Shown: positions 9,347 to 24,433, counted from the stretch's first letter. The stretch is 64,000 bases of DNA from an uncultured Pseudomonadota bacterium (GCA_963836235.1 CAWIIP010000002.1:256001-320000); one strand, 5' to 3'. The notes: generated by a model not told the origin, from the letters alone. Translations and numbers: made by a program.

Positions 9347-9789
9347 CCACCATCTATCAATTTTTAAATGCTGCTTACGCCATCCGTTGTGGTTTATCGC
9401 TTCAAACTCATCGACTTAAACCGATTTAAACCAAAAATCGTTTTTTTGACTGTTCAAAAAAGATTTCTCGTTCACCTTTTAGACGGTTGCTTGGATTTTT
9501 ATTACAATTTATTGTGAAAGCGTTGTGAAAGCGGTGTCGAATTGCTTTTCTAAAACTTAGCTCTTTGTTACCATGAATATAATATATATCGCTTTTTCGA
9601 TAAAACCATGCTTTTTAACGAAAAAATGCCCAAACGGTTTCCTAAAGCAAATATGAAGGTTTTTATGCATTTTTAAGGTGTAAGAGTTCCCAATGTGCAA
9701 TGGAACAGTAATGTTATGATTTGCTTGCTTACAGCTTCCCTGAGGCCATCTTTATGCTTTTGTAGTTCTGGAAAAAATCAAAAGGTAAA

Positions 9790-11007: not shown

Positions 11008-12167
11008 AACCATCCAAAATGAAAAACCTATCCGTAAAATCAGCTTCATCTGTTTTTCTTCTAATCCTTCTTTTTTTCTCAAGAACCCTTTCCCACGCCG
11101 AACAAATCATAGATACCGAAGACCCATTAATCGTTTCCAAAAACACCGCCTATATGCGGTTGAAGAACGGCTATTTCTCCGACGCCCTTTCCGCGGGTAA
11201 AGACGCTTTAAAAATGGCGGAAGACCGTTATGGCCCAACCCATCCGGACTTAGTCCCCTTCCTCATCGATCTCGCCACAATTGATCGCTACATGGCCCGT
11301 TACGCCGATGCCGAAGCGGCCCTCAAATGGGGGCTAGCCATCCAAGAAAAGACTTTCGGTCCCGATGATCCCCAAGTGGCCGAGACCTTAGACCAGTTAA
11401 CTTCTCTTTATACCGATTGGGGCAAATGGCCAGATGCCGAGTTCTTTGGAAAAAGGGCTGTCGCCATTCTCGAAAAGAAGGAAACAAACTCGCCCGACGA
11501 CCTTACCCAAGCTCTCGATCATCTCGGCACCGTTGAAATGGAAATGGGAAAAGATTCAGAAGCCCAATCACTTTTGAGAAAAAGTCTCAAAATTCAAGAG
11601 AAAGACGCCAAAACTGATCCGCAGGCCACCCTCCAAACGCTCCATCTTCTTTCCAGGCTTTGCCAATCAAGCAAGCAATTTTCCGACGCGCAATCCTATC
11701 TTCAAAAAGTCCTCGATATTTCGAAGAAAAATTACGCTAACAATTCCGTTGAACAAGCCGACGCCATGGAACTCTTGGGGGATTTTTACCAATCCCAAAA
11801 GCAGGTCGAAAAGGCCGAAAGCTTATTCAAAACCGCCCTCCCTATTTACCAGCGGTTCGTGGGTGTTTATTTTGGCTATTCCACTTCGGATTACGTTCGA
11901 AAGTTGGCAAAAGCCTATGAATCTGTGGGTAAAAACAAGGAAGCGGAAGATTTACTCCAAAAAAGCCAGCAAACCCTAAAGGAAACTTTTGGGCCCAGCC
12001 ATCCCCGGGTGGCTTTAGGTTTGCTGGATTTAGCCCAAGTGGAAGAAGCCCTGGGGCAAAAAACCATAGCTCAGGCAGATCTTAAGGAAGCGCTTACCAT
12101 GGCCCAATCCTTTTTCGGGGACACCCATCCTCTGGTTGTCAAAATCCAAAAACAACTCCATTCATGA
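11004..12167 (+). CDS. Secreted tetratricopeptide-repeat protein (kinesin-light-chain-like TPRs)
   Basis: Repeated GP.HP.VA..L..L...Y......AE..L..AL.I motifs. Confidence 0.85.
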   Translation: MKPSKMKNLSVKSASSVFLLILLFFSRTLSHAEQIIDTEDPLIVSKNTAYMRLKNGYFSDALSAGKDALKMAEDRYGPTHPDLVPFLIDLATIDRYMARYADAEAALKWGLAIQEKTFGPDDPQVAETLDQLTSLYTDWGKWPDAEFFGKRAVAILEKKETNSPDDLTQALDHLGTVEMEMGKDSEAQSLLRKSLKIQEKDAKTDPQATLQTLHLLSRLCQSSKQFSDAQSYLQKVLDISKKNYANNSVEQADAMELLGDFYQSQKQVEKAESLFKTALPIYQRFVGVYFGYSTSDYVRKLAKAYESVGKNKEAEDLLQKSQQTLKETFGPSHPRVALGLLDLAQVEEALGQKTIAQADLKEALTMAQSFFGDTHPLVVKIQKQLHS

Positions 12168-12191
12168 CCTATCCCATCGCCCTCGAAACCC

Positions 12192-14111
12192 ATGGCTGAA
12201 TCTCAACCGCATCCGATATCCCTGACGCCCTTAAATCGCCTCCAATTCATTTCAAATCCGTGGTTTTATCCAATCTTAGCCTGCTTCCTGTTGGTGATCC
12301 TTTTATCCGCCCGTAAAATCGGAAATTACGATCTCGGTTTCCACCTAAAAGCCGGACAATCCATACTTCAAACACACTCTTTTCCCCAAAAAGATACCTT
12401 CACCTATACCCAAACTGACCGGGACTACCTGGATTCCAACGGCCTTTACCAAATCCTCCTATATGTCTTCGTTAAGAACATAGGGTACTCCGCCCTCACC
12501 TTACTCAACATGGTAGTCATTCTTCTCGTTTTTGGACTCTTGTGGGGCCGTATCCAGTCCACGAAAGCCCCTTTTTGGGGAAAAACGCTGATTTTTTTAG
12601 CCGCCATCCTGGCCACGGAACGGCGTTTCATTGTTCGCCCCGAGATTTTTTCATGGCTTTATTTAAGCCTGACCTTGCTCATTCTTGAATCCCGGATACA
12701 TCGAACCCGAAACCTTCTCTTTCTATTGCCGGTCATTCAACTTCTCTGGGTCAATACCGAGGGACTCTTCATGTTGGGCTGGGCCGCCATAGCGGCTTAT
12801 GGAATCAGCGGCTGGCTTCAGGAAAAAAGGGTGGATCGGGCCCTTTTCCCCTATTTTCTTTTGTCGATCGCGGCAGATTTCTTGAATCCCTATGGGTACA
12901 AGGGCTTACTCTTTCCCTTCGTTTTATGGACCCGGCTCCAAGCCTCTAATATCTATAAACAAACCATTTCAGAATTCTTTACTCCCTGGCACTTTCTAAC
13001 CGGTCAAAATCTCCAGTACGATTCCTACCTTCATATATTTATCTTCTTTGCCCTAGTTCTCTTTTCATTGCTTCTGGCCATCCCCTCCATTCGGCAAAGG
13101 AAATTCCACGAAATATCCCTTTTCGTGATTTTCCTTTTCTTGGCCTTGATGGCCGTCCGGAATATCCCTTTATTTATCCTCATCGACGCCCCTTTCCTGG
13201 CGGTTTGCCTGGCCGATTGGACGGCCAAACCCCGCTGGGGATGGCTTTATGGCCCCCAAACCGCTATCGGGCTTACCCTCTTTCTTGTTCTTTTAGGATT
13301 AAGGGTAGGCACCAACGCCTTTTATCTTTCAGACCGCAGAAATGACAGGATGGGCTTGGGTTTGGATACCGACCGTCTACCCGTAAAAGCCGTTCACTAC
13401 ATGATCCAAAACCGCTTGGATGGGCAAATGCTCAATGACTTGAATTTTGGGGGATGGCTGGACTGGCAGGGTCCCCAGCCCACCTACATTGACGGCCGCC
13501 TGGAAGTACCGGACGACTCCTTTTACGGGCAATATAAGCAAAGCTTCGCTCCGGCGGGCCTGATCCCCCTTTTGGCTATCACCCAAGCCCAGTTGGTCGT
13601 CATGGAATACAACTCCGCCATTTCCTGGGCCGATCAGCTCCAAAGGTTTCAAGACTGGCGCCTGATTTACCTGGACGAATGCACAGCCATTTACGCCCGT
13701 AAGGACTATGCCCCCCAAATCCCCGCCCTTTCTTATGCCGATTTCACCAAATCCATCGGTATCCCCAGCGAAACGGATATCTCCGTCATGGGCCAGCTTC
13801 AAAACCTAAGGCCTTCTAAGTTTTCATCCTGGATCGAGGGATTTTACCAGCCGCAGTTTTATGCCATGAGCACCTTCAGCATGGGCCTCTTCGCCATGCG
13901 GATGGGTGAGTACCAAGCCGCGCGGGATATTTTTATGGAAGGCTTCCGCCAAACGAACGGGGCCTATGGGGAAGTTTTTTTCAACCTGGCCGTGGCCAAC
14001 CTTCACTTGAAAAACTACGCCATCGGCAAATGGTGCCTGCAATACAGCCTCGGATTGGAACCCAATAATCCTTCGGCCATACAAATGCTCAACAGCTTGA
14101 GAAGTTATTGA
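12192..14111 (+). CDS. Polytopic membrane protein with C-terminal TPR; possible GT-C fold glycosyltransferase
   Basis: Many TM segments; DLGFHLKAG, RPEIF, WVNTEG, NPYG, IDGR motifs; C-terminal TPR. Confidence 0.65.
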   Translation: MAESQPHPISLTPLNRLQFISNPWFYPILACFLLVILLSARKIGNYDLGFHLKAGQSILQTHSFPQKDTFTYTQTDRDYLDSNGLYQILLYVFVKNIGYSALTLLNMVVILLVFGLLWGRIQSTKAPFWGKTLIFLAAILATERRFIVRPEIFSWLYLSLTLLILESRIHRTRNLLFLLPVIQLLWVNTEGLFMLGWAAIAAYGISGWLQEKRVDRALFPYFLLSIAADFLNPYGYKGLLFPFVLWTRLQASNIYKQTISEFFTPWHFLTGQNLQYDSYLHIFIFFALVLFSLLLAIPSIRQRKFHEISLFVIFLFLALMAVRNIPLFILIDAPFLAVCLADWTAKPRWGWLYGPQTAIGLTLFLVLLGLRVGTNAFYLSDRRNDRMGLGLDTDRLPVKAVHYMIQNRLDGQMLNDLNFGGWLDWQGPQPTYIDGRLEVPDDSFYGQYKQSFAPAGLIPLLAITQAQLVVMEYNSAISWADQLQRFQDWRLIYLDECTAIYARKDYAPQIPALSYADFTKSIGIPSETDISVMGQLQNLRPSKFSSWIEGFYQPQFYAMSTFSMGLFAMRMGEYQAARDIFMEGFRQTNGAYGEVFFNLAVANLHLKNYAIGKWCLQYSLGLEPNNPSAIQMLNSLRSY

Positions 14112-14125
14112 GAAAAGGCGGTTTG

Positions 14126-14237
14126 AACCACGAAGGCACAAAGGGCACCAAGAAAAGCAAAAATAGAGATAGGGTTTAACATAGTCTTAAATATCTTTGT
14201 CTTTCGTTTCACTTCGTACCCTTTGTGCCTCGTGGTT
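14126..14237. repeat. Miniature inverted-repeat (hairpin) element
   Basis: Arms AACCACGAAGGCACAAAGGGCACCAAG and CTTCGTACCCTTTGTGCCTCGTGGTT around an AT-rich spacer. Confidence 0.75.
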
Positions 14238-14380
14238 TTTACTGCCCTTGGCCAAAGGCCAATGGGTGGTGGTTCAACAGATTCTTCGTCTTTCTATGTT
14301 CTGGCAACCTTCACAACCAGGTCAAATTCGGCTAAACTCCCCCTTCAAAATGCAGGTCCAAAACCTTAAGGTAAGGGTTC

Positions 14381-15454
14381 ATGACTGAAGCAAAACAAAC
14401 TTTCCCCATGGCGGAAGCCAAAAAAATCGTCGACGACCTCTTCGAGCCCAGCGCGGCCCTCTATTGGGCCGATCTCCTCTTTAACACTATCCTCGGCTGG
14501 GGGGCCTTCGTCTTGGCGGTTTTATCCCCCAACTTTTCAGCCATCCAAATCCTCAGTCTGGCCGTTTCGGTCTTTTGCCTCTACCGGGCGGTGATCTTTA
14601 TTCACGAATTAACCCACCTCAAAAAAGACACTTTCGGCTTGTTCCGGATCGTTTGGAACCTGCTTTGCGGCTTCCCCTTCATGGTCCCCTCCTTCACCTA
14701 TATGGGCGTCCATATCGACCACCATAAACAGAAAATGTATGGCACCCGGGACGACGGCGAATACCTTCCCTTTGTCCTGATGGGCCGCTTTCGGATTATT
14801 CTTTTCTTTTTAACCATGCTGGTCGTTCCCTTTGTCTTTACCCTCCGCTTCCTGCTGACCCCCATTTCTTACCTCATTCCACCCCTCCGCAAGCTCCTTT
14901 GGGAATACCTTTCGTCGCTTTCCATTGACCCCGAATGGGCTCGCCCCGCCCCCCAGGAAAGGGACGGCAAATGGTGGCAATTGCAGGAATGGCTGACCTT
15001 CGGTTATGCCGTGGCTTTTGGCTGGTTGCTGTGGAAAGGAATACTGCCGCTGAAAGTGCTGGTTCTCTGGTACATCGTGGCGACGCTGATCTTATTGACC
15101 AACGGCATTCGAACCGTCGCGGCCACCCATTGTTACCGCAACCCCGCCGACCACATTTTGGAATTTTCGGAGCAGTTTTTGGACTCGGTCACCGTCCCCG
15201 GCAACCCCGTCACTACCGGCCTCTGGGCCCCTGTCGGCCTTCGCTACCACGCCGTCCATCATTTGTTTCCCGGCATGCCCTATCATAACCTGGGGAAAGC
15301 CCATTATCGCTTAATGAAGGAACTGCCGGAGAATTCGATCTATCGTTTGAGCCTGAGGAAAAGCCTTTGGCATGGGCTGTCACAGCTTTGGAGGGAAACG
15401 ACCGCCGCCCAAACGGCCAAGCAGGCGGTTGGAAGAACTTCGAAAGTTTCTTAG
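14381..15454 (+). CDS. Membrane fatty acid desaturase family protein
   Basis: Three His boxes HELTH, HIDHH, HAVHH plus TM helices. Confidence 0.9.
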   Translation: MTEAKQTFPMAEAKKIVDDLFEPSAALYWADLLFNTILGWGAFVLAVLSPNFSAIQILSLAVSVFCLYRAVIFIHELTHLKKDTFGLFRIVWNLLCGFPFMVPSFTYMGVHIDHHKQKMYGTRDDGEYLPFVLMGRFRIILFFLTMLVVPFVFTLRFLLTPISYLIPPLRKLLWEYLSSLSIDPEWARPAPQERDGKWWQLQEWLTFGYAVAFGWLLWKGILPLKVLVLWYIVATLILLTNGIRTVAATHCYRNPADHILEFSEQFLDSVTVPGNPVTTGLWAPVGLRYHAVHHLFPGMPYHNLGKAHYRLMKELPENSIYRLSLRKSLWHGLSQLWRETTAAQTAKQAVGRTSKVS

Positions 15455-15485
15455 ATATTCCAAATCCGTTTTGACATTTTCTCCC

Positions 15486-15514
15486 TTGACAAGGTTATAC
15501 CGAAGTTATACTTT
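15486..15514 (+). promoter_or_regulatory. Sigma70 promoter with overlapping operator repeats for the MazEF-like operon
   Basis: TTGACA(15486)-17 nt-TACTTT(15509), 6 nt before ATG 15521; GTTATAC direct repeat at 15494 and 15505. Confidence 0.6.
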
Positions 15515-15520
15515 TGACTT

Positions 15521-15757
15521 ATGAAAACAGCTATCTCCATTCCTCATAAGGTTTTTGAAACTGCCGAAAAACTGGCCGAAAAACTGGGTGTTTCCCGAAG
15601 CCAACTCTATGTAACGGCTATTAAAGATTACCTTGATGGCCATATGGATGATTCCGTGACGGCTAAACTCAACGAACTTTATGCCGATACGGATTCTAAG
15701 CTTGGCCCCGCGCTGAGGAAACTTCAGGCAAAGTCTATTTCTAAGGATGGGTGGTGA
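15521..15757 (+). CDS. Ribbon-helix-helix antitoxin (ChpI/MazE6-like)
   Basis: MKTAISIP...A.KLGVSRSQLY..A; overlaps the toxin start. Confidence 0.85.
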   Translation: MKTAISIPHKVFETAEKLAEKLGVSRSQLYVTAIKDYLDGHMDDSVTAKLNELYADTDSKLGPALRKLQAKSISKDGW

Positions 15758-16095
15758 ACCGGGGCGAAATTTGGTGGGCGGACCTACCCGGCCCCAAAGC
15801 TTCGGAACCTGGATACAGCCGCCCCGTCCTAATTGTTCAATCAGACGCGTTTAATCGCAGCCGCATTCAAACCATTGTCGCCATCGCTCTTACGTCCAAT
15901 CTCCGATTGGCCGATGCTCCTGGAAATGTGAAACTATCCGCGCGTAAAACGGGTCTTCCAAAAGATTCGGTGGCCAATGTGTCCCAAATCATTACCCTGG
16001 ACAAAACCTTTCTGAGGGACAAATCTGGAAAATTGGACGCGTTAACAATAAACCACATTGAAGATGGAATAAAACTTTTGCTGGATTTGAAATAA
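15751..16095 (+). CDS. mazF: MazF/PemK family endoribonuclease toxin
   Basis: RGEIWWADL...RPVLIVQ...LTSN...GLPKDSVANVSQIITLDK. Confidence 0.92.
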   Translation: MVNRGEIWWADLPGPKASEPGYSRPVLIVQSDAFNRSRIQTIVAIALTSNLRLADAPGNVKLSARKTGLPKDSVANVSQIITLDKTFLRDKSGKLDALTINHIEDGIKLLLDLK

Positions 16096-16142
16096 TTCTT
16101 GAGTAGAACACAGGCGCAGTAATGTGCAGGTCAATCCTTGGC

Positions 16143-16298
16143 TTGTTTCCCGGCATGCCCTATCCCAACCTGGGAAAAGCCCACTATCGTTTGAGCCTGA
16201 GAAAGAGCCTTTGGCATGGTTTGTCGCAACTGTGGAAGGAAACAACTGCTGCCCAAACGGCCAAACAGGCGGTTGGAAGAACTTCAAAGGCTTCTTAA
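16143..16298 (+). pseudogene. Displaced duplicate of the desaturase 3' end (36-bp internal deletion)
   Basis: Aligns to 15263..15454; translates LFPGMPYPNLGKAHYRLSLRKSLWHGLSQLWKETTAAQTAKQAVGRTSKAS*. Confidence 0.9.
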
Positions 16299-16395
16299 AA
16301 TCCTAAATACCTCCCTGTCGTGGACAAAAAAATAATGGTTAATGGTGGCCTGACCCCGTTTTTCACTTTACGGACGATTGCGTAAGTCGTTTGAT

Positions 16396-17192
16396 TCAAG
16401 GCAAAACATTAGTTTTCCTCCAAGTTTGATAAACATCTGATTTCAAGATTGGGATGAATTGAGTATCTTTGTTTAGAACCTCTTGATACTTGGAATCCAA
16501 TTGGATGACTTTTGCGATTTCTCGGACAGCTAATTCCGGTTGATTTTCGGCCCAATAAGCGAGCGTTAAATTGTAATGACCCATTAAATAATCCGGCTTA
16601 ATTCTAACTGATCTTTGTAAGGCTTGAGCCGCTTCATAACCATAAGCTGTTCCCTTTTGCCGTAAATAAGCATAACCCATTAAACCCCACGCCTCATAAT
16701 TCTCGTAATCACATGAAGTGGCCTCCATATATTCTTGGATAGCATTTCTATAATCTTGAACGCGGTAATATTCCTTTCCCTTTTTTAAATGTTTCCAGGT
16801 TTCCGCGAAAGGATTAAGCCATTTGTAATTCCTAACAAAAGCAGGAGTTCCTTCTGAATCGTTCCCTATAATTTCATCAATATCAACATCCTTAAACACA
16901 GGAGGGGTAAAATTTCCATCTTCACTAACATCTTCACCCTTGAAAGCCGGTATTATTTTTCCATTATAAAAAAAATAAAATTCTGACGAACAAGCCCTAG
17001 CAGACAACGCACACCAATGAAGACCAAAAAAAATAGGCCCTCTTTTTTTTATCAAACCAAAATCCATATACGAAGGCCAAATACTCTCAAAAGGAAGTTG
17101 ATCAAGCAATTTTCCATCTTCATCAAAAACCATTAACATTCTTTGACCGGAAATTTCATCCGGGGCCATTAGAAAAATTTCCTTTTTCCCAT
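16396..17192 (-). pseudogene. TPR-containing gene, 5' end removed at the IS21 left end
   Basis: AT-rich frame with C-terminal TPRs that is open up to the IS boundary; the ORF-track start lies inside the IS. Confidence 0.7.
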
Positions 17193-17324
17193 TGTAAACG
17201 CCGTTCCAAAACCGTGACGGTCTAGAGGCCCTCTCAGGGCGGTCGAAAAGTGTGACACTCCCCGAAATTACCGGATGATGTGTGTTTTTCAGCGATGAAA
17301 ACCACGCCACCGGAAGGAAAAGGA

Positions 17325-18836
17325 GTGTACAAAGACATGGACCAATGGACGGAAATCCGCAAGAAAATCCTGGTGGAAGGGGTCTCCAAGCGCCAGGTGA
17401 TGGAAGAAGAAGGCATCCACTGGGAAACCCTCCAGAAAATACTCGCCCATAGCGAGCCTCCCGGCTACCAGATGAGCCAGGAGAGGCCCCAGCCCAAAGT
17501 GGGGCCCTTCTTGGGCCGGATCAAGCAAATCCTAGAAGACGACAAACACACCCACAAAAAGCAACGCCATACCGCCAAGCGCATCTTTGAGCGTCTGCGT
17601 AAAGAGGATGGTTACACGGGTGGGTATACCCAGGTGAAAAAAGCCGTCCGCGGGATCAAGCACAGGAACAGCGAAGTTTTCGTGCCGTTGTCGCACCGGC
17701 CTGGTGAGGCACAGGTGGACTTTGGGCACGCCCTGGTCAAACTCAATGGCGTGCTGGTAAAACGCCCCTACTTTGTGATGGCCTTGCCCTATTTGGATGC
17801 TTTCTTCGTGCAGATATTCGAGCGGGAGAGTACGGAGTTCGTCTGGGAAGGCCACATCCGGGCCTTTGAGTACTTCGGCGGCGTGCCTTCACGGATTAGC
17901 TATGACAACGCCAAAACCCTCGTGAAAAAGCTGATCGGGGTACACCAACGGGAATTGACACGGAGTTTCCAACAGTTGGTAAGCCACTATCTCTTCGACC
18001 ACCACTTCTGCACCGTACGCCGGGGTAACGAAAAGGGTGTGGTGGAAGGCGGGGTGAAGTATGTCCGACTAAATTTCATGGTGCCGGTTCCGCAAGTGGG
18101 ACATTTGGAGGAACTGAACAAAAAATTGGTGGTGAACTGCGATGAGGATTTGGAACGCAAATTGCGCGGCAAAGGGGCAGTCAAAGCCAAGCTTCTTGAA
18201 GAGGACAAAGCCCATTTTCGGCCTTTGCCCGCTACACCTTTTGATGCTTGTCTGAAGCAATCCACGACGGCCACATCCTTGTCCCTGGTTCGCTTCGACA
18301 CCAACGACTATTCCGTGCCATCGGAATGGGCTCACCATCCGGTGGTGGTGAAAGGATACATCGACCGGGTGGATATTTTTTACAAGGCCAGGCGAATTGC
18401 GACCCATGATCGTCTTTGGTGCAAGGAAGGCGTAACCTTCAATCCGGTGCATTATTTGGCGGTTTTGGAGGGAAAGCCTGGGGCACTGGACCATGCCCGG
18501 CCCCTGGAAGATTGGAACCTGCCGGAGAGTTTCACCCTCTTGCGCCGTCGCATGGAAGGAAAGGAAAAGTTTCACGGCGAGGGGACGAGGGAATTCATCA
18601 AGACGTTGCGGCTTTTGGAAAAGAATTCCATGGGCAGGCTCCACCGGGCCGTGAAAAAAGCCGTTCAGATGGAAATTTATACACGCGATGCCGTCGCCCA
18701 GTTGCTCTACTCCAAGGAAGATTTCAGACTGACCACCTTCAGCTTGGCCGGTCGTGAGCATTTGCGGCGGGTTCAGGTGGCCCGGACAGATCTTTTGGCC
18801 TACCGAGAACTGATGGCCGTTGGAGGTGAAGCATGA
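17325..18836 (+). CDS. istA: IS21 transposase IstA
   Basis: PGEAQVDFG, YDNAK, GNEKGVVE DDE motifs; probable GTG start at 17325. Confidence 0.95.
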   Translation: MYKDMDQWTEIRKKILVEGVSKRQVMEEEGIHWETLQKILAHSEPPGYQMSQERPQPKVGPFLGRIKQILEDDKHTHKKQRHTAKRIFERLRKEDGYTGGYTQVKKAVRGIKHRNSEVFVPLSHRPGEAQVDFGHALVKLNGVLVKRPYFVMALPYLDAFFVQIFERESTEFVWEGHIRAFEYFGGVPSRISYDNAKTLVKKLIGVHQRELTRSFQQLVSHYLFDHHFCTVRRGNEKGVVEGGVKYVRLNFMVPVPQVGHLEELNKKLVVNCDEDLERKLRGKGAVKAKLLEEDKAHFRPLPATPFDACLKQSTTATSLSLVRFDTNDYSVPSEWAHHPVVVKGYIDRVDIFYKARRIATHDRLWCKEGVTFNPVHYLAVLEGKPGALDHARPLEDWNLPESFTLLRRRMEGKEKFHGEGTREFIKTLRLLEKNSMGRLHRAVKKAVQMEIYTRDAVAQLLYSKEDFRLTTFSLAGREHLRRVQVARTDLLAYRELMAVGGEA

Positions 18837-19606
18837 GCGAAACCAAAAAGACCCTCTTGCTGGAACACCACCTCAAAAAACTCAAGTTGCCTACCATGCA
18901 CCGCGAGTACGACAAGATGGCCCAACTCTGTCGTACTGAACGCAGTGATTATCCGCAGTACCTGTTCAAGCTGGCCGAACTGGAACTTCTTGACCGGGAA
19001 CGCCGGGCCAAGGAGAGGCGTATCCGGGATGCGGGCTTTCCCGTGCTCAAGACATTGGACACGTTCGACTTCAAAGCTCAGCCTTCGATCAACCAGGAAT
19101 TGACGCGGGAACTCATGCGGGGCGAGTACATCGACAAAAAAGAAAACGTCCTGCTGATCGGAAATTCAGGAACAGGTAAAACCCATTTGGCCACGGCCTT
19201 GGCCTTCCAGGCCTGCTGCCAGGGCCGGGCGGTGCGGTTCTTCTCCGTCACCGGCCTTGTGACGGAACTTTTGGAGCGCCGGGAGGAAAAACAATTGGCC
19301 AAGTTCCACCGGCAGTTGGCCAGGCTCCACCTGATCGTCCTGGACGAACTGGGTTACGTACCCTTCACCAAGGCGGGGGCCGAGCTGCTATTCGAGGTGG
19401 TCAGCAAGGCCTATGAGCGTACCAGCCTGATGGTAACCACTAATTTGCCCTTTGAAAATTGGGTGGAAATCATGGGTTCGGAAAGAATGACGGGGGCTCT
19501 TATTGACCGTTTGACCCATCGGGTGCATATTCTGGAGGCCAACGGCCAAAGCTTCAGGCTGGGGGAAGCGAAAAAACGGCTAAGGCGTAAAGACAAGAAG
19601 GATTGA
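18833..19606 (+). CDS. istB: IS21 helper AAA+ ATPase IstB
   Basis: GNSGTGKTHLA Walker A, LDELGY Walker B, TTNLPF..W, DRLTH. Confidence 0.95.
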   Translation: MSETKKTLLLEHHLKKLKLPTMHREYDKMAQLCRTERSDYPQYLFKLAELELLDRERRAKERRIRDAGFPVLKTLDTFDFKAQPSINQELTRELMRGEYIDKKENVLLIGNSGTGKTHLATALAFQACCQGRAVRFFSVTGLVTELLERREEKQLAKFHRQLARLHLIVLDELGYVPFTKAGAELLFEVVSKAYERTSLMVTTNLPFENWVEIMGSERMTGALIDRLTHRVHILEANGQSFRLGEAKKRLRRKDKKD

Positions 19607-19706
19607 AAAGATTAACCAACGACCATACACCCTAAAGGCGTATGGAAGGCGGGGGGTGTCACACTTTTGGACCGCCCACCGTCACACTTTTCGACCGGCG
19701 CGGACA

Positions 19707-19895
19707 TTTTAAGTAGGTCACCTTCTTAGCCCGGTGCTTTCGAACAACTTTGGAGATGACTTCCTGGAAAAAACAAAGGACTACGTAAGGAGTTAACCCC
19801 TTATGCTTCCGATGAGACCGGGAGACATGGGGTTCCAACATAGCTTTCCGCGAGGGGTCGAATTCCAAGATTGGATAACGTTGACGTTTAAGCAT
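19707..19895 (-). pseudogene. 5' fragment of a nucleoside phosphorylase-like gene truncated at the IS21 right end
   Basis: YPILEFDPSRKAMLEP...VVLCFFQEVI N-terminus; frame runs into the IS terminus. Confidence 0.6.
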
Positions 19896-19992
19896 TTAAT
19901 GATCCAACCTTTTTAAAATTAATAGAGCCGTTGGAAATAATCTTGTCCACGACGGGTCCCCTTCGTGGACACCAACTACATTCAAAACCCAA

Positions 19993-20119
19993 CTACTTCA
20001 CCCAAACCAAATCTTTCAACTCGGGCGGATCAATGCCTAGCATCACCAAGCATTCCTCGAAATCCACGGGCGGAAGAACCGTATAGGTCTTCGTGATTCC
20101 CGTCTGGGGTGTTGTTGGA
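19993..20119 (-). pseudogene. Displaced copy (distal) of the rluD 3' end
   Basis: Aligns to 21529..21654; ..TGITKTYTVLPPVDFEECLVMLGIDPPELKDLVWVK*. Confidence 0.92.
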
Positions 20120-20128
20120 GGAAGTAAA

Positions 20129-20338
20129 TTATTTATTCCAGTCGGAAGGATGAATATCGGCTTGCCGGAGAATTTCGCGCAGAAGAGGAATTCCAATATC
20201 ACCCTGATGTGGATTGGGGATGCGGAGTTTTAAGGTGCCTTTCACCATGAACATATGCTTCCCTCCGCTATAGGGACCCTCAAAACCTAGGCGGACCAAA
20301 CCCCGGATCAAATCACGCCGGGAAACGGGTCTAAGCAT
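20129..20338 (-). CDS. hicA: HicA family toxin
   Basis: L..LGF.GP..GGKH.FM.KG...L.IPNPH..DI...LL..ILRQA. Confidence 0.9.
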   Translation of the reverse strand: MLRPVSRRDLIRGLVRLGFEGPYSGGKHMFMVKGTLKLRIPNPHQGDIGIPLLREILRQADIHPSDWNK

Positions 20339-20576
20339 GAACTAAATTCGGCAATTTCAAGCGCTTACCCTGGATCACGGGAAGTTTATCACCCTGCCGA
20401 ACTTTTAATAAAACCCACTCTTCCAAGACTTCCTGGAGAACCTTCCGGCAATCCTCCAGCCCTTTTTCATTCGACCAAACACCCTTAAAACCAGGTACTT
20501 CACCGTAATAGGTTTTGTCCTCAAGAATTTTATATTTCGCTTGCCCCATCGCAGTCTGAATATATTCCATAAACAT
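20331..20576 (-). CDS. hicB: HicB family antitoxin (short form)
   Basis: YI..AM..A.Y..LED..YYGEVPGF.GVW...LE.C...L.EVLEEW. Confidence 0.9.
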   Translation of the reverse strand: MFMEYIQTAMGQAKYKILEDKTYYGEVPGFKGVWSNEKGLEDCRKVLQEVLEEWVLLKVRQGDKLPVIQGKRLKLPNLVHA

Positions 20577-20641
20577 GTTGGGCTCCTTTGTGAGGGCATT
20601 ATATCAAAGCTAATTAAGTTACGAACAATGTTAAAACCCGC

Positions 20642-20776
20642 TTATTTCACCCAAACCAAATCTTTCCACTCCAGCGGGTCAAGCCCCAGCATCACCAGGC
20701 ATTCCTCAAAATCCACGGGAGGAAGAACCGTATAGGTCTTCGTGATTCCCGTCTTGGGGTGTTGGAAAAATAACCG
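20642..20776 (-). pseudogene. Displaced copy (proximal) of the rluD 3' end
   Basis: Aligns to 21529..21663; RLFFQHPKTGITKTYTVLPPVDFEECLVMLGLDPLEWKDLVWVK*. Confidence 0.92.
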
Positions 20777-20816
20777 CACAATCTCACCTTCCCGCCGTAA
20801 ATGACGCAACTCCGAA

Positions 20817-21230
20817 TCAATGCCTTTTTAGAAACAACAAAAATTGCCGGGGATTAACAATTCTAATTTTCCGGAAAGACTTGAGATCAAGCAGATCCTT
20901 GTCGCCTGTAACGATAAAATCGGCCTGACCGGCGACAGCGCATTCCAAAACAGGATTGTCCTTGGGGTCGCGGCTGGCGATAACTTTGATAACGGGGGAA
21001 ACCCATTCAGCATCACTTTTAAGAAGTTCAAGGGTATCCAAGATGTCATGGGGATTGACGAATGCTGAGATTTTGGGTTTCCGGCAAGCGGCATTAAACT
21101 CGGTGACGAGTTCGGGTGAGGTGATTATATCGAAAAGTCCATCCAAAAAAGCCCTGCGAACGGCGAGACAATTTCGGCTTCCAAGAAGAATGCTGATTAA
21201 TACATTGGTGTCAATGACGGCTCTTGCCAC
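20817..21230 (-). CDS. PIN-domain (VapC-like) toxin
   Basis: VIDTNVLIS...E...RDPKDN..LECAV.G.AD.IVTGDKDLL. Confidence 0.9.
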   Translation of the reverse strand: MARAVIDTNVLISILLGSRNCLAVRRAFLDGLFDIITSPELVTEFNAACRKPKISAFVNPHDILDTLELLKSDAEWVSPVIKVIASRDPKDNPVLECAVAGQADFIVTGDKDLLDLKSFRKIRIVNPRQFLLFLKRH

Positions 21231-21444
21231 GTAATTCCTTGCGGGTTTCCTTGACCAAAGCCACTATTTCCTTCTCGCTCAAGCGGTTCTTTGTAGTCCT
21301 TTTTTGGATGCGGTTCAGAAGGGGGGTCCAACGTTCTCGCCGGGTCTGCCTTTCGAGCTCGTGGGCCAGCTTGATTTTGTCTTTTACGGAAAGCTGTTGG
21401 ATGAGATTTTCAATATCCACAGGAACTTTGACGGCGAGATTCAT
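21211..21444 (-). CDS. Putative antitoxin of the PIN toxin
   Basis: Small ORF with GGAGGAG RBS, overlapping the toxin start; LSEKEIVALVKETR tail. Confidence 0.75.
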   Translation of the reverse strand: MNLAVKVPVDIENLIQQLSVKDKIKLAHELERQTRRERWTPLLNRIQKRTTKNRLSEKEIVALVKETRKELRGKSRH

Positions 21445-21528
21445 GGATGGCTCCTCCCTTTTACCTTTGCATGTTCTGATTGTAGTCCAATTTGATCCAT
21501 TATCCAATTCACTATTAAGAAAGGGGTA

Positions 21529-22503
21529 TTACTTCACCCAAACCAAATCTTTCCACTCGGGCGGGTCAATGCCCAGCATCACCAGGCATTCCTCAAAATC
21601 CACGGGGGGAAGAACCGTATAGGTCTTCGTGATTCCCGTCTTGGGGTGTTGGAAAGAGAGCCGGAAGGCGTGAAGCATCTGGCGGGGGGCCAAATCGGAA
21701 CCGCCCCCATAAACCGCATCCCCTAAAATGGGATGGTGGATGTATTGCATATGGACGCGGATTTGGTGGGTGCGGCCCGTTTCCAGTTTTAGATGAAGCA
21801 GGCTGGCCTTTTCCGCCTTACCCAGAACCGCGAAATGAGTGACCGCGATTTTCCCGCCCTCGGGTAACACCGCCATTCTTTTGCGGGAGACGAAATGCCG
21901 GCCCAGAGGGGCGTTGACTACCCCAGGCCCTTCCACTTCCCCCTTAACAATCCCTAAATATTCCCGGCTTAGTTTGCGGTATCTCAATTGCTTTACCAGA
22001 CTTTTGTAAGCCGCGTCGGTCTTGGCCACCACGAGAAGCCCCGAAGTATCCTTATCCAGCCTGTGCACCAGCCCCGGCCTTTGAACCCCTCCGACCCCCG
22101 CGATATCCGGGCAATGGGCCATGAGGGCATTGATGAGTGTCTTATCCGGATTCCCCGCGCCGGGATGCACCACCATCCCCACCGGTTTGTTGATCACCAA
22201 AAGAGAGGCGTCCTCAAAGACGATATCCAATTTGATGTCTTGGGCTTTTATATCGGACTTTTTAGAGGGTGGAATGTTGACTTGAAAGGTTTGGCCTTCC
22301 AAAACAATCAAGGAGACTTTTAAGGCCTTCACCGGAAATTGGGGGATGACATGGCCTTCTTTGATGAGAACTTGGGCTTGGTTGCGGGAAAAGGCTTTCA
22401 ACTGGGCAGAGAGGAAAACATCCAGGCGCTTGCCCCCCTCGCCAGGTTGGACGGTAATGAGGGCGGTTTGGGCGGTGGTGGAAGAGGGTTTCATGGAAGG
22501 CAT
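21529..22503 (-). CDS. rluD: RluA/RluD family 23S rRNA pseudouridine synthase
   Basis: S4-like RLD.FL, NKP.GMVVHP, VHRLDKDTSG, LETGRTHQIRVH, QMLHA. Confidence 0.93.
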   Translation of the reverse strand: MPSMKPSSTTAQTALITVQPGEGGKRLDVFLSAQLKAFSRNQAQVLIKEGHVIPQFPVKALKVSLIVLEGQTFQVNIPPSKKSDIKAQDIKLDIVFEDASLLVINKPVGMVVHPGAGNPDKTLINALMAHCPDIAGVGGVQRPGLVHRLDKDTSGLLVVAKTDAAYKSLVKQLRYRKLSREYLGIVKGEVEGPGVVNAPLGRHFVSRKRMAVLPEGGKIAVTHFAVLGKAEKASLLHLKLETGRTHQIRVHMQYIHHPILGDAVYGGGSDLAPRQMLHAFRLSFQHPKTGITKTYTVLPPVDFEECLVMLGIDPPEWKDLVWVK

Positions 22504-22546
22504 TTTACTTGGAATCGACGGCAAAACCCAAAAGAAAGAGGGTTTG

Positions 22547-22648
22547 AACCACCAAGGGCACCAAGTTCACCAAGAACGACGAACATCTAAGATTTTAAAA
22601 TTCTCAAAAGTCTTTTGCTTTCTTGGTGCCCTTGGTGAACTTGGTGGT
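22547..22648. repeat. Miniature inverted-repeat (hairpin) element
   Basis: Arms ACCACCAAGGGCACCAAGTTCACCAAGAA and TTCTTGGTGCCCTTGGTGAACTTGGTGGT built from 9-nt CACCAAG units. Confidence 0.8.
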
Positions 22649-22661
22649 GAAAAAGGTTTTG

Positions 22662-23465
22662 TCAGAGGTTCTTAATTTGGGGTTCTTTTGGTTTTCTTTG
22701 AATAATCCAGAGGATAACCAAAACCGACAGGAGAATAATGATTCCGCTGACAGCCTGGGAGGCTGAGTTGAAGATAATCAAATAGTGTTTGTTCCAATCC
22801 CGTCTCCAAAATTCAATGACTAGTCGAAGGGTTCCATAAGTAAGCCCATACAAAGCGATGGTCAGCCATTGGTAACGGATGGTCCAACGCCGGGTCCAAA
22901 GCAGGAGTAGAAAGAGGGCGAAGTCCCCGGCCATTTCCCATAGCTGGGTTGGAAGATGGGGGATATTGTCCCCCGCTCCCGGAAAAATCATCCCATGAAC
23001 CGGATCTTCGATTCCATAACAACAGCCATTCAAAAAGCATCCAACGCGCCCAATGGCGTGGCCCAAGAGGATATAAGGGGCCACCAAATCGAAGGTATAG
23101 CTGACTGGCCATTTCTGGGTTCGAATCCAGTAAAAAGCTACCGCCAAAGCCCCGAAAAGTCCCCCGTAAAACACCAACCCGCCTTGCCATATTTTGAAAG
23201 CATCAAGCCATTGGCCGTTCTCAAACTCGGTATAGTTTTCCAAAACGTAAAAGAGCCTCGCCCCCAAGAGGGAGCAGACAATGACATAAACCCCTAAGTC
23301 GAAGGCTTTTTGAAAGCCTTGTTCGTAGGTGATCCCCACCTTCGGGGCGACGTATTTACCCGTGTCCCTGGCGAAGAGATAAATGCTGAATCCCAGCGCC
23401 ACCGCCATGCAAAGGCCGTAGGAATAAAAATGAAGCGGGCCGATGGTCCACAAAATCGGATACAT
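22662..23465 (-). CDS. lgt: Prolipoprotein diacylglyceryl transferase
   Basis: MYPIL, YG, GARLFYV, GGLVFYGG, GRVGCFLNGCCYG, PTQL.E, R..IEF.R. Confidence 0.95.
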   Translation of the reverse strand: MYPILWTIGPLHFYSYGLCMAVALGFSIYLFARDTGKYVAPKVGITYEQGFQKAFDLGVYVIVCSLLGARLFYVLENYTEFENGQWLDAFKIWQGGLVFYGGLFGALAVAFYWIRTQKWPVSYTFDLVAPYILLGHAIGRVGCFLNGCCYGIEDPVHGMIFPGAGDNIPHLPTQLWEMAGDFALFLLLLWTRRWTIRYQWLTIALYGLTYGTLRLVIEFWRRDWNKHYLIIFNSASQAVSGIIILLSVLVILWIIQRKPKEPQIKNL

Positions 23466-23954
23466 TTAAACCCTTTCCCAAGATTGCTTTGGTTTCGCGA
23501 AAAAATAGCCCAACAATAAAAGAGTCAAGCCGACCGTGATACAGGAATCCGCCAAATTGAAAATGTAGGGAAACCATTGGTGCTGGTGGAAACGAACGTC
23601 GATAAAGTCCACGACTTTCCGGTAAAAGACCCTATCAATGAAGTTACCCATCGCCCCGCCCCAAATCAACCCCAGGGAGAGCCGTTGAAGCACTTTCTCG
23701 GAAGGAACGAACCTTTGATAGGCGTAAACAATCAAGCCCGCCCCGCAGGTGATGGCGATAAAAAAGGGAATCCGGACATAGGCGGGGGTATTGGCCATGA
23801 ACCCGAAAGCCGCGCCGGGGTTTTGGATGTAAGTCAAATAAAGATAATCCCGGATGACCATGATCGAATCCCCCATCCGGCAATAGTGCATGACAAGGAA
23901 CTTCGAGATTTGGTCGGAAAGAACCGCCAGTAATGAAACTCTTCGAATGATCAT
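23466..23954 (-). CDS. lspA: Lipoprotein signal peptidase (copy 2)
   Basis: DQISK, NPGAAFG, GGAMGNFIDR, VVDFI, FNLADSCI. Confidence 0.92.
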   Translation of the reverse strand: MIIRRVSLLAVLSDQISKFLVMHYCRMGDSIMVIRDYLYLTYIQNPGAAFGFMANTPAYVRIPFFIAITCGAGLIVYAYQRFVPSEKVLQRLSLGLIWGGAMGNFIDRVFYRKVVDFIDVRFHQHQWFPYIFNLADSCITVGLTLLLLGYFFAKPKQSWERV

Positions 23955-24433
23955 GCCCGGGTCTTCTGCCGGTGACCCGCGATAAACTCAAAGAGAAGAT
24001 AGGCGAGCCCCACGGTAATGCAGGCATCCGCCACATTGAAGATATAAGGGAACCATTCGTATTCGTAATAACGCATTTCAATGAAATCGACGACTTTGCC
24101 ATATAAAAGCCGGTCCACCATGTTTCCCAAGGCGCCTCCCCATACCAAACCGAGCGCGATGCGGGTTAGAAGCCTCTCATGGGCCAAGAGCTTTTGGTAC
24201 ATATAAACGATGAAGGTGGCCGCCAGGGTGGCCGCGATAAAAAAGGGAATGCGCACAAAGGGTTCCAAATTGGACATGAAACCAAAGGCGGTTCCGGGAT
24301 TTTGGATATAGGTGAAATATACGAAATCGGGTAAGAGGGGAACGGACTCGTTCAGGGACATTCGGTTTAAAACGAGGAACTTGGTGGCCTGGTCCAAGGC
24401 CAATACCAGCATGGAGATACCCGCCAGCGGCAT
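23951..24433 (-). CDS. lspA: Lipoprotein signal peptidase (copy 1)
   Basis: DQATK, NPGTAFG, GGALGNMVDR, VVDFI, FNVADACI; TGATG coupling to ileS. Confidence 0.92.
   Translation of the reverse strand: MPLAGISMLVLALDQATKFLVLNRMSLNESVPLLPDFVYFTYIQNPGTAFGFMSNLEPFVRIPFFIAATLAATFIVYMYQKLLAHERLLTRIALGLVWGGALGNMVDRLLYGKVVDFIEMRYYEYEWFPYIFNVADACITVGLAYLLFEFIAGHRQKTRA

Follow-up and report, generated by a model that had tools for sequence, protein, structure and literature searches.

The stretch of DNA analysed here, hereafter the window, comprises 64,000 nucleotides of one strand from an uncultured Pseudomonadota bacterium (GCA_963836235.1, CAWIIP010000002.1:256001-320000; genome G000). It carries a fatty-acid desaturase gene (14381-15454, plus strand; PF00487, 2e-29) with 92% amino acid identity to its orthologue in G001, the only same-genus genome. 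The last 192 nt of this gene form the resident tail d1 (15263-15454, plus strand), which is a member of repeat families D2 and D3. It is followed on the same strand by a minimal mazEF operon extending from promoter to stop codon (15469-16098), delimited by Pfam matches and by DNA kept in other genera. The operon encodes an RHH antitoxin (15521-15757; weak RHH_1 match) and a MazF/PemK toxin (15751-16095; PF02452, 88.7 bits). Next to it, on the minus strand, lies a 3'-terminal fragment of a group II intron (16101-16147). It corresponds to the end of domain VI, matches the ends of introns from G045 and G010 at 95-98% identity, and is truncated at an orphan desaturase tail. Alignment of this orphan, d2 (16143-16298, plus strand), revealed a 36-nt in-frame deletion, after which the native 3' flank of the gene continues.

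The pseudouridine synthase gene rluD (21529-22524; PF00849 and S4 domains) and the two units behind it are all encoded on the minus strand. Its last ~135 nt constitute the resident tail t1 (21529-21663), one copy of the repeat. Adjoining it is a PIN toxin operon (20817-21523), consisting of a 98-aa partner without a Pfam match (21211-21507) and a PIN toxin whose gene overlaps that of the partner (20817-21230; PF13470, PIN_3, 9e-21, 75.2 bits). The operon has 91% DNA identity to a copy in G045 and 77% to one in G001, both of which lie behind unrelated genes without flanking repeats. A middle orphan tail, t2 (20642-20776), is 93% identical to the rluD end and precedes a hicAB operon (20129-20576) with 78-80% DNA identity to loci in G021 and G015. 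This operon contains a hicB-like antitoxin gene (20331-20576; UPF0150/HicB-like, PF21748, 5e-29, 100.4 bits) and the toxin gene hicA (20129-20338; PF07927, 4e-10, 40.1 bits). The distal orphan tail t3 (19993-20127), delimited by repeat alignment, has a 1-nt deletion and is followed by a REP-like hairpin; its identity to the rluD end is 79% over 135 nt ungapped and 94% over 122 nt by BLAST. As each unit combines a toxin domain with an adjacent small partner in one operon, the three are predicted to be toxin-antitoxin (TA) systems of the MazEF, VapBC-like PIN and HicAB types.

The ORFs, Pfam matches and repeat alignments agree with the initial annotation, made from the DNA alone, that three units of gene tail plus TA operon are present. 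Each unit measures 650-890 nt and has no ORF other than the toxin and antitoxin genes, and the repeats are 123-192 nt long. The similarity of the tails has an abrupt start within the gene and extends to the stop codon or at most ~20 nt past it. Conserved cassette DNA begins 5-15 nt after the host stop codon, and therefore the 65-85 nt promoter region described earlier belongs to the cassette. The distance from toxin stop to orphan start is 1-48 nt, in place of the 10-50 nt first given. Each orphan can still be read as the C-terminus of its gene, the copies have diverged and the contig is 2 Mb long, so the tails are neither chance nor an assembly artefact. The insertions are stacked, as at rluD with its two orphan tails, and the host gene is intact.

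No tRNA was found in 10000-27000, and no recombinase domain was detected in the units or among the ORFs of 12192-23465, in line with the earlier statement that neither an integrase nor a tRNA accompanies the units. Between the two arrays, outside the units, lies an IS21-family insertion sequence (about 17193-19706, plus strand; IstB_IS21, 7e-70, with rve and Mu-transposase C-terminal domains), comprising istA (17280-18836) and istB (18833-19606); both of its ends are multi-copy in G000 and relatives. A gene with TPR Pfam matches (16396-17310, minus strand), likewise outside the units, occupies the former spacer between desaturase and rluD. It is 82% identical in DNA to G045:C5:236657-237455, which is above the level of housekeeping genes, and it is absent from the same spacer in G001. 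It was probably imported too.

The two desaturase tails are 87-90% identical and differ at about 18-19 of 153 nt, with 15 differences in synonymous codons and 4 nonsynonymous (15:4). Most changes specific to d2 fall on third codon positions, as counted by hand on the site list. Over 153 nt, the resident tail d1 differs at 10 positions from the metagenome contig L080 and at 18 from d2, the contig being the nearer of the two, and the flank downstream of d2 is homologous to the flank 3' of the desaturase stop in L080 and G001. The intron fragment matches G000:C2:504728-504756, inside an RF00029 match of 49.2 bits; an Rfam search of the window itself gave no match, because domain V is missing. The junction between the intron fragment and d2 falls inside a 9-nt microhomology, TTGTTTCCC, which forms the first 9 nt of d2 and occurs both in intact copies of the group II intron and in the coding sequence of the desaturase. 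It is the sole junction at which microhomology could be read, the PIN and hicA junctions having been included in the attempt. A later microhomology-mediated deletion would leave an identical d2 junction, which counts against the explanation favoured below.

Over 111 nt of the rluD tails, t1 and t2 differ at 6 positions, t1 and t3 at 7, and t2 and t3 at 12, which places the resident tail between the two orphans. Such a midway position is expected for duplication from one source and speaks against the reading that we prefer. About 20 nt of flank beyond the stop codon are common to t2 and t3, and their start points are ~13 nt apart. This proximity is not predicted by independent illegitimate joins and also weighs against that reading.

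An empty site exists in G001, where the desaturase and rluD genes are convergent with stops ~53 nt apart, as the initial annotation had anticipated for a relative, and the metagenome contigs L081 and L087 are empty sites also. Orthologues of rluD occur in 41/41 genomes examined, and extra tails were seen in G000 only. The cassettes themselves recur in other genera with 77-91% DNA identity, compared with 58-71% protein identity for rluD, with unrelated flanks and no terminal repeats. For example, the mazEF DNA is 83% identical in G012 and G043, two other genera, including the conserved -35/-10 elements and operator, and again the flanks are unrelated. The layout recurs in G012 at another gene, where an oxidoreductase gene, hicAB, a 212-nt orphan tail and mazEF follow one another in this order, and hicAB of G021 is flanked by a 133-nt direct repeat. 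Two other sites in G001, those of the radical-SAM and metH-like genes, are without the 3.5-kb and 1.6-kb inserts, respectively, that are present in G000. At each of these two sites, the resident tail is slightly nearer to G001 than the orphan is (9 vs 12 differences). No larger element carrying these tails was found in 41 relatives. Neither was any donor-type genome, in which desaturase or rluD is directly followed by a TA operon but no orphan, among 41 relatives, 31 family genomes and 51 metagenome loci, and no identity breakpoint or crossover point was visible inside the desaturase gene on comparison with L080. The lack of a donor and of a breakpoint, together with the two resident tails nearer to G001, counts against the favoured explanation.

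A genome-wide scan for duplicated gene ends retained 16 loci in G000 at which cargo, mostly TA or defence genes, lies between two copies of a gene tail, a gene head or intergenic DNA. The pattern is frequent in the genome and not peculiar to desaturase and rluD. Because it extends to gene heads and intergenic DNA, the process is not specific to gene tails. Gene-head duplication, the mirror-image product, is found with Phd-PIN cargo. The duplicated ends range from 45 to 222 nt, and the right-hand repeat boundary is a stop codon at most loci; alignment by eye of the repeat boundaries of ~10 genes gave no shared core motif. Eight tyrosine recombinase genes are present in G000, but a search for recombinases co-occurring with the pattern placed none of them less than 15 kb from any site, and the PF00589 match nearest to the array, at C2:509098, is ~230 kb off. 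In a cross-phyla survey, direct repeats flanked 5/66 mazEF loci vs 1/115 control intervals, which hints that the scar is general across phyla.

The repeat copies are 79-95% identical, and the distribution of their differences over codons is informative. Synonymous changes outnumber nonsynonymous ones in the tail pairs of peptidase S9 (10:1), DinB (16:2) and radical SAM (7:0) and in the heads of a bioA-like gene (23:6, with 24/29 differences at third positions) and a helicase gene (10:4, with 13/14 at third positions). With the desaturase, this makes six loci at which most differences between the copies are synonymous or lie at third codon positions, which identifies these copies as alleles of separate lineages and not in-situ duplicates. 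However, the excess is absent from 6/12 tail pairs tested, namely rluD t2 (5:4), the metH-like gene (2:8), MT207 (13:25), MT205 (4:11), a 190-aa gene (2:2) and G012 (5:6). Two more are weak: the tail pair of a 591-aa gene leans synonymous (6:4) without significance (P = 0.14), and rluD t3 (6:2) barely reaches it (P = 0.04). Therefore both rluD units could be decayed in-situ duplicates.

On balance, we believe that the units are scars of additive recombination with DNA of related lineages, with no dedicated cassette machine. This explanation starts from what is directly seen, that is, the repeats, the empty sites, the allelic divergence, one microhomology junction and the sharing of cassettes between genera. 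The donor lineage would have carried a minimal TA operon 5-20 nt behind the same host gene. One end of the incoming DNA would recombine homologously inside the 3' part of the gene, and the other, non-homologous end would undergo an illegitimate join at short microhomology within the recipient's own gene copy, as in homology-facilitated illegitimate recombination. Integration of a circularised fragment by a Campbell-type single crossover would yield the identical product. The gene would then end in the donor tail followed by the cargo, and the old tail of the recipient, along with its native flank, would be left behind further downstream. At rluD, a second event would push the first unit outward, so that an array forms with the newest unit adjoining the gene. 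We infer the identity of the donor copy, how the DNA entered and in what order the events took place; ComEC (1 copy) and DprA (2 copies) are present in G000, but lend weak support to uptake because most control genomes (10-11/14) carry both. The earlier suggestion of homology-anchored uptake from relatives agrees with the data, as the resident and orphan ends are different functional alleles and one join is at microhomology. We propose that the junctions fall inside the gene end because the desaturase and rluD stops are only ~53 nt apart, leaving few other harmless positions. Stabilisation by addiction may likewise account for the cargo: TA operons would dominate because cargo flanked by 50-200-nt direct repeats can recombine away, yet losing an addictive module kills the cell.

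Three other explanations need to be weighed against additive recombination. Recombination between repeat copies might excise a circle of gene end plus TA operon, which a single RecA crossover would then re-integrate in the same gene end of a relative. A comparable cycle has been proposed for restriction-modification units (PMC2853133), and it would give the same final structure with allelic copies while also accounting for the arrays and the similar start points of t2 and t3. We nonetheless regard it as rather unlikely, since no relative has the same cassette at the same gene, the rluD orphans are confined to G000 among 41 genomes, and the cassettes lie behind different genes in different genomes. 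It is equally doubtful that the borrowed gene end acts as a portable homology arm, with an illegitimate event needed once per cassette-gene pair. Less probable still is a true insertion with long target duplication, in which a staggered or resected break by the stop codon is repaired by copying 50-220 nt on both sides and the identical copies diverge later. The ~20 nt of native flank past the stop on both copies, the missing synonymous excess at rluD, the metH-like gene and G012, and the central position of the resident rluD tail all agree with it, as do the nearly identical published copies of restriction-modification insertions, e.g. 417/423 (Table 3 of PMC2853133). Yet it is at odds with the strong synonymous or third-position excess at six loci and with d2 being further from d1 than L080 is, and a break-based mechanism does not predict a right-hand repeat boundary at the stop codon of most loci.

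Integrative elements are known to form tandem stacks and to bring with them the 3' end of the gene they target. The tails could accordingly be att sites of integrase-less satellites mobilised in trans or of decayed integrative elements, CIME-like or tycheposon-satellite-like. The abrupt repeat starts and the eight tyrosine recombinase genes in G000 would suit such site-specific integration. We consider it very improbable in view of the lack of a shared motif at the repeat boundaries of ~10 genes, the repeat lengths from 45 to 222 nt, the distance of at least 15 kb to any recombinase, the lack of a tRNA and of a larger tail-bearing element in 41 relatives, the repeat-free cassettes elsewhere, and one boundary that is a microhomology join with an intron fragment. 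The missing core motif, the varying lengths, the repeat-free cassettes and the distant tyrosine recombinase genes, with the duplication of heads and intergenic DNA, likewise give no support to the integron-like cassette system or trans-acting site-specific recombinase that had been envisaged.

If additive recombination is the source of these units, ordinary recombination could suffice for the movement of minimal TA operons without mobility genes and for their piling up at certain genes, with the stranded gene end as its footprint. Being frequent in G000 (16 loci) and, as the survey hints, general, this footprint could mark recombinase-free gene gain. The synonymous-site test, which separates imported alleles from true target duplications, bears directly on insertion with long target duplication, whose mechanism is still called unknown in the literature consulted. 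A bolder and rather doubtful extension is that TA and other addiction or defence cassettes spread integrase-free in many phyla, using a 50-200 nt gene end as homology arm, looping out, re-entering by a single RecA crossover and building chronological arrays at many genes. In that case, what has been described at restriction-modification genes as long target duplication would instead be the import of alleles.

Among known systems, chromosomal integrons share with these units small cassettes, often TA in content, that stack at one site with the newest nearest to the entry point. Unlike integrons, the units here lack intI and a common promoter, and their ends share no attC-like sequence; every cassette has its own promoter, and many different genes serve as sites. 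No IntI-type recombinase was found beside the array among the ORFs of 12192-23465, and comparison of the cassette ends gave no common sequence. The 3'-end displacement arrays of Rhs, CDI and T6SS effector-immunity loci (PMC5361080; Jackson et al. 2009 cited there) are similar in that a new module enters through a conserved upstream gene part and shifts the previous 3' end, along with the partner gene, downstream, giving a chronological array without an integrase. At those loci the displaced 3' ends are variable toxin tips and the orphan immunity genes are useful in themselves, whereas here the displaced ends are conserved housekeeping tails with no evident function, and the cargo is separate.

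Closer in mechanism is homology-facilitated illegitimate recombination, with one homologous anchor and one illegitimate join at short microhomology beside conserved sequence; a join of this kind is seen at the intron fragment/d2 junction (TTGTTTCCC). Experiments on that process reportedly yielded mostly insertion-deletions. In contrast to what was shown experimentally, no recipient sequence is lost here, the recipient's gene end persists as a stub, and DNA uptake is putative. The process was described for naturally transformable bacteria by de Vries and Wackernagel 2002, Prudhomme et al. 2002 and Meier and Wackernagel 2003 (as summarised in PMC5361080; also PMC3240628).

The scar is not new in kind: restriction-modification gene complexes show one like it, known as insertion with long target duplication and reportedly described by Nobusato et al. 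in 2000. As in those insertions, an addiction-type unit without a mobility gene lies here between direct repeats that measure tens to hundreds of bp, which correspond to single-copy sequence at a relative's empty site and often span a gene start or stop with the host gene kept intact. The published definition comprises flanking direct repeats >30 bp with a single counterpart at the empty site of a related genome, no other mobile element or mobility gene, an insert <20 kb, and R and M homologues (Furuta, Abe and Kobayashi 2010, PMC2853133). Repeats >30 bp with empty sites are found here (G001, L081, L087 and two further G001 sites), and the three units are free of mobile elements and below 20 kb, the IS21 element lying outside. 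The cargo consists of mazEF, PIN and hicAB operons and not of R and M genes. As to whether the copies are each other's closest relatives, the desaturase tails differ at 18/153 from each other vs 10/153 from L080, and the rluD tails are compatible with such a relationship. The present cases are thus distinguished by cargo of type II TA operons and other small defence genes, by copies of 79-95% identity whose differences are mostly synonymous at six loci, where those published are nearly identical, by the stacking of units in arrays, and by microhomology at one junction.

The fatty-acid desaturase gene (14381-15454, + strand) is followed on the same strand by an RHH antitoxin gene (15521-15757), a MazF/PemK toxin gene (15751-16095) and an orphan copy of the desaturase 3′ end (16143-16298). 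This copy comprises the last codons including the stop, shares 87-90% identity with the resident tail and has lost 36 nt in frame. On the - strand, rluD (21529-22524) is followed downstream by a 98-aa partner gene with a PIN toxin gene (20817-21507), a first orphan rluD tail (t2, 20642-20776), hicB and hicA (20129-20576) and a second orphan rluD tail (t3, 19993-20127). In translation, all orphan tails still encode the C-terminus of the respective gene. The similarity begins sharply within the gene, for rluD near the FQHPKTG codons with the two orphan onsets ~13 nt apart, and ends at the stop codon or at most ~20 nt beyond it. These features confirm the units of gene tail plus toxin-antitoxin (TA) operon described in the initial annotation, which had itself raised the possibility of an assembly artefact; this is ruled out, as the copies are 79-93% identical rather than identical and lie inside a 2-Mb contig. 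No recombinase domain was detected in the units and no tRNA gene was found within 10000-27000.

The two arrays are separated by a TPR gene, an IS21 element and a 78-aa ORF without known family. The TPR gene (16396-17310) lies in the former desaturase-rluD spacer and was probably also imported, since it shares 82% DNA identity with a gene of G045, a relative from another genus, where the counterpart (in region L028) adjoins another small gene pair. The IS21-family element (istA, istB; 17193-19706) is inserted between the arrays, and its ends recur many times at 82-99% identity in the genome under study (G000, of which the window covers C2:256001-320000), in the sole same-genus genome (G001), in G012, G043 and in other genomes. 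A REP-like palindrome (GTCCACG...CGTGGAC) is present at 19942-19971 and 16312-16364 and also, with 91-100% identity, downstream of many genes in most genomes of the family. A putative ORF of 58 codons with an ATG start (16122-16298) extends in frame into the desaturase orphan. Adjoining lgt, a tandem pair of lspA (signal peptidase II) paralogues (23466-24436), which have diverged to ~50% mutual identity, is kept in all relatives examined.

An empty site is found in relatives, the comparison that the initial annotation had proposed. In G001, which is 80% complete and the only same-genus genome for comparison, the neighbours match those of the window (a 639-aa gene, desaturase, rluD, lgt and two lspA genes), and the desaturase and rluD stops are just ~53 nt apart; the same tight convergence is seen in two metagenome contigs, L081 and L087. 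More distant family members have 1-5 kb of membrane-protein genes between desaturase and rluD, without extra tails. RluD is present in 41/41 genomes and the orphan rluD tails in G000 only; neither donor genomes nor strain variants of the rluD array were found among 41 relatives, 31 family genomes and 51 metagenome loci. Two further sites of G000, at a radical-SAM gene and a metH-like gene, are empty in G001, and three others have no usable G001 match.

The TA cassettes are minimal and, as judged by DNA identities that stand against a RluD protein identity of only 58-71% to the genera sharing them, travel between genera. The mazEF DNA between the -35 box and the stop codon (15469-16098) is conserved at 83% identity in G012 and G043, with unrelated flanks and with no terminal inverted repeats or conserved flanks in the three genomes compared. 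The PIN operon has counterparts in G045 (91% identical) and G001 (77%), in both of which it stands 70-100 nt behind unrelated genes without flanking repeats, and hicAB is 78-80% identical in G021 and G015. A mazEF pair that is linked to a peptidase gene in G000 also occurs in G005 (on another contig than the peptidase gene), G045 and G008. Similar scars occur outside the genus as well. In G012, hicAB stands behind a quinone-oxidoreductase gene and is succeeded by a 212-nt orphan tail (95% identical) and a mazEF that is 83% identical to that of the window; beside this array are two identical genes for an IS200-like Y1 transposase that has a DnaA-type HTH and may be REP-associated (L051:6205-7158 and 9776-10729). 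In G021, a 133-nt repeat flanks the hicAB relative and overlaps the start of the next gene. Of 80 mazF-homologue loci fetched from many phyla, 66 had enough flank, and direct repeats of 46-125 nt bracket 5/66 of these versus 1/115 shifted control intervals (Fisher p = 0.025); the repeats at the five loci are mostly intergenic or head-like (that is, resembling 5′ gene ends).

The 3.97-Mb G000 genome was compared with itself for direct-repeat pairs of 45-450 nt with at least 75% identity and a spacing of 250-6000 nt. Among the 104 pairs, 21 touch an ORF (at least 150 aa) at its 3′ end, 4 touch a 5′ end, 48 lie within genes on both sides and 31 are of other kinds. After removal of tandem paralogues and unclear pairs, 16 loci were retained: 9 tail, 4 head and 3 intergenic. 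Besides the three tail loci of the window with mazEF, PIN operon and hicAB, tails are duplicated at a peptidase S9 gene around RHH-PemK, at a DinB-family gene around Fic, at the radical-SAM gene around a protein resembling AbiEii (under the Pfam cut-off; GmrSD lies past the orphan), at the 1157-aa metH-like gene (named from sequence only, without a Pfam call) around a lipoprotein-like gene with HigBA beyond the orphan, at a 591-aa gene around IS66 and a small ORF, and at a 190-aa gene around DUF2867 and a 405-aa ORF. Heads are duplicated at a 1106-aa helicase-like gene (cargo Phd-PIN), a bioA-like gene (RelB-YafQ just upstream of the orphan head), a pirin gene (HigBA) and a 566-aa gene (CopG-like and DUF6364 proteins). 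The intergenic repeats lie at a DUF6364 gene, at an RHH-PIN pair near a malic enzyme gene, and behind a type I restriction R-subunit gene (G000:C1:565731-568482, L140), where three copies of 100-143 nt bracket an RHH-PIN pair plus a gene for a RES-domain protein and its 130-aa partner, a second stacked array. The duplication pattern is genome-wide and is not confined to gene tails: the scan suggested by the initial annotation did reveal many gene-tail repeats around cargo, but heads and intergenic DNA are duplicated too.

Dropped from the 21 tail pairs were tandem paralogues (C1:254809, C2:1053595/1059295, C4:604339 and C4:637057), repeats within a large opposite-strand gene (C2:824863/824914), a pair adjoining IS30-like genes (C4:288666), and, as unclear pairs, C4:494673 together with the methyltransferase pairs MT207 and MT205, which have 72-75% identity and no synonymous bias. 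C2:841825 was left out of the retained loci, and C4:279732 was moved from the tail to the head class. The 36 pairs of partial gene copies longer than 450 nt, sought as decaying full duplications, looked like paralogues or IS copies as far as inspected.

Differences between resident and orphan copies were classed by codon against a null of 38% synonymous changes, a value that allows for constraint on the resident copy and neutrality of the orphan. Synonymous changes are in excess (synonymous:nonsynonymous) in the tails of the desaturase (15:4, P = 3e-4), peptidase S9 (10:1, P = 5e-4), DinB (16:2, P = 1e-5) and radical-SAM genes (7:0, P = 1e-3), and the heads of the bioA-like (23:6) and helicase (10:4) genes differ at third positions in 24/29 and 13/14 cases. 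There is no excess in the tails of the metH-like gene (2:8), the 591-aa gene (6:4, P = 0.14), the 190-aa gene (2:2), MT207 (13:25), MT205 (4:11) and the G012 oxidoreductase (5:6). At the six loci with an excess, the two copies read as alleles rather than fresh duplicates, with weaker evidence at the rluD units. There, t2 (5:4) has no synonymous excess and t3 (6:2, P = 0.04) is marginal, which together with the closely spaced onsets makes a true target duplication possible for these two units.

For the desaturase, the metagenome contig L080 has a gene without mazEF that is 98% identical in amino acids and ~91% in nucleotides, and its 3′ flank shows homology both to the sequence after the orphan tail and to the G001 spacer; the ~20 nt that follow the resident stop likewise resemble native flank. 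Over the shared 153 nt of tail, the resident differs from L080 at 10 sites, the resident from the orphan at 18 and the orphan from L080 at 18, and the orphan-specific changes are, by a hand count from the site list, mostly third-position GC-to-AT transitions. From these counts, the orphan seems to have belonged to a working gene of a separate lineage for most of its divergence. As the whole gene is ~91% identical to that of L080 with no identity breakpoint, this comparison places no crossover and proves neither copy imported. As a guide to the native tail at the radical-SAM and metH-like sites, G001 gives 9 versus 12 differences each, which is not decisive.

The junctions bear on how the units were joined. 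A group II intron 3′ end fills the 47 nt that separate the mazF stop from the orphan tail (16101-16147, - strand), matching intron ends in G045 and G010 at 96-98% and also G000:C2:504728-504756, which lies inside an RF00029 hit (49.2 bits) with an RF02003 hit further in; an Rfam search of 15400-21700 itself gave no match. That intron copy (G000:C2:504725-506654; L139:1726-3654, - strand) includes RF00029 (domains V-VI) and RF02003 (D1-D4). That related intron ends occur at contig termini in G010 points to a multi-copy element in this family. The closer intron copies (G045, G012) run on as ...CCTTGGCTTGTTTCCC(T/C)GTTTCC..., the desaturase sequence is CATCATTTGTTTCCCGGCATG, and the fragment changes to desaturase sequence inside the common TTGTTTCCC. 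This switch indicates an illegitimate, microhomology-mediated join rather than a site-specific one, which could have formed at integration or through later deletion. At the other units, a stretch of ~30 nt after PIN is similar to the REP-like sequence that follows the cassette in G001 and G045, and the hicA stop directly abuts the orphan rluD tail.

The simplest account is that DNA from relatives was integrated additively. The incoming DNA would enter through a homologous crossover within the gene end, and its illegitimate joining to an internal position of the recipient's own copy of that end would leave the latter stranded downstream. Such a course is one of homology-facilitated illegitimate recombination, and a circular fragment that entered by a Campbell-type crossover would yield the identical product. 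Gene stops 53 nt apart would leave few other harmless junction positions. Repeats of 50-220 nt that are 5-20% diverged would recombine poorly, and loss of addictive cargo would be counter-selected, which together would explain the repeat size range and the TA-rich cargo on established knowledge of RecA and post-segregational killing. The allelic copies and the one microhomology join support homology-anchored uptake, one half of the initial proposal; the ComEC and DprA genes of G000 are of little weight for uptake. The other half, a dedicated system resembling an integron without an integrase, is not supported, nor is any recombinase-based system behind the units. In alignments judged by eye, which covered the repeat boundaries at 11 tail loci plus 9 pairs of the head or intergenic type, no common motif or shared core was seen, the repeat lengths are variable, and heads and intergenic DNA are duplicated besides tails. 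A look for recombinases co-occurring with the pattern was among the checks named in the initial annotation, and 0/8 tyrosine recombinase genes of G000 lie within 15 kb of a site; larger elements with these tails, which if integrase-bearing would have made the units decayed remnants, were not found in 41 relatives. The eight genes (C2:509098, C2:929772, C2:1186149, C2:1374385, C1:328990, C4:196578, C4:245282 and C5:272844) encode ORFs of similar size (369-432 aa, 6/8 of 369-374) and may belong to one repeated element.

A literature search on toxin-antitoxin with target duplication or 3′ duplication, supplements not covered, returned no account for TA operons. Homology-facilitated illegitimate recombination was proposed for T6SS orphan immunity arrays by Kirchberger et al. 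2017, in the part consulted, where Rhs C-terminal displacement is also cited (PMC5361080). For restriction-modification (RM) genes, the sections consulted of Furuta, Abe and Kobayashi 2010 describe long target duplications whose repeats often cover a gene start or stop and keep the gene intact, and state that release and reinfection, as steps of the proposed RM life cycle, lack experimental support (PMC2853133); the account is restated for RM systems only in the portion consulted of Mruk and Kobayashi 2014 (PMC3874152). We file the present scar under this known kind, insertion with long target duplication, to which the TA cargo, the allelic copies and the arrays at many genes are new.
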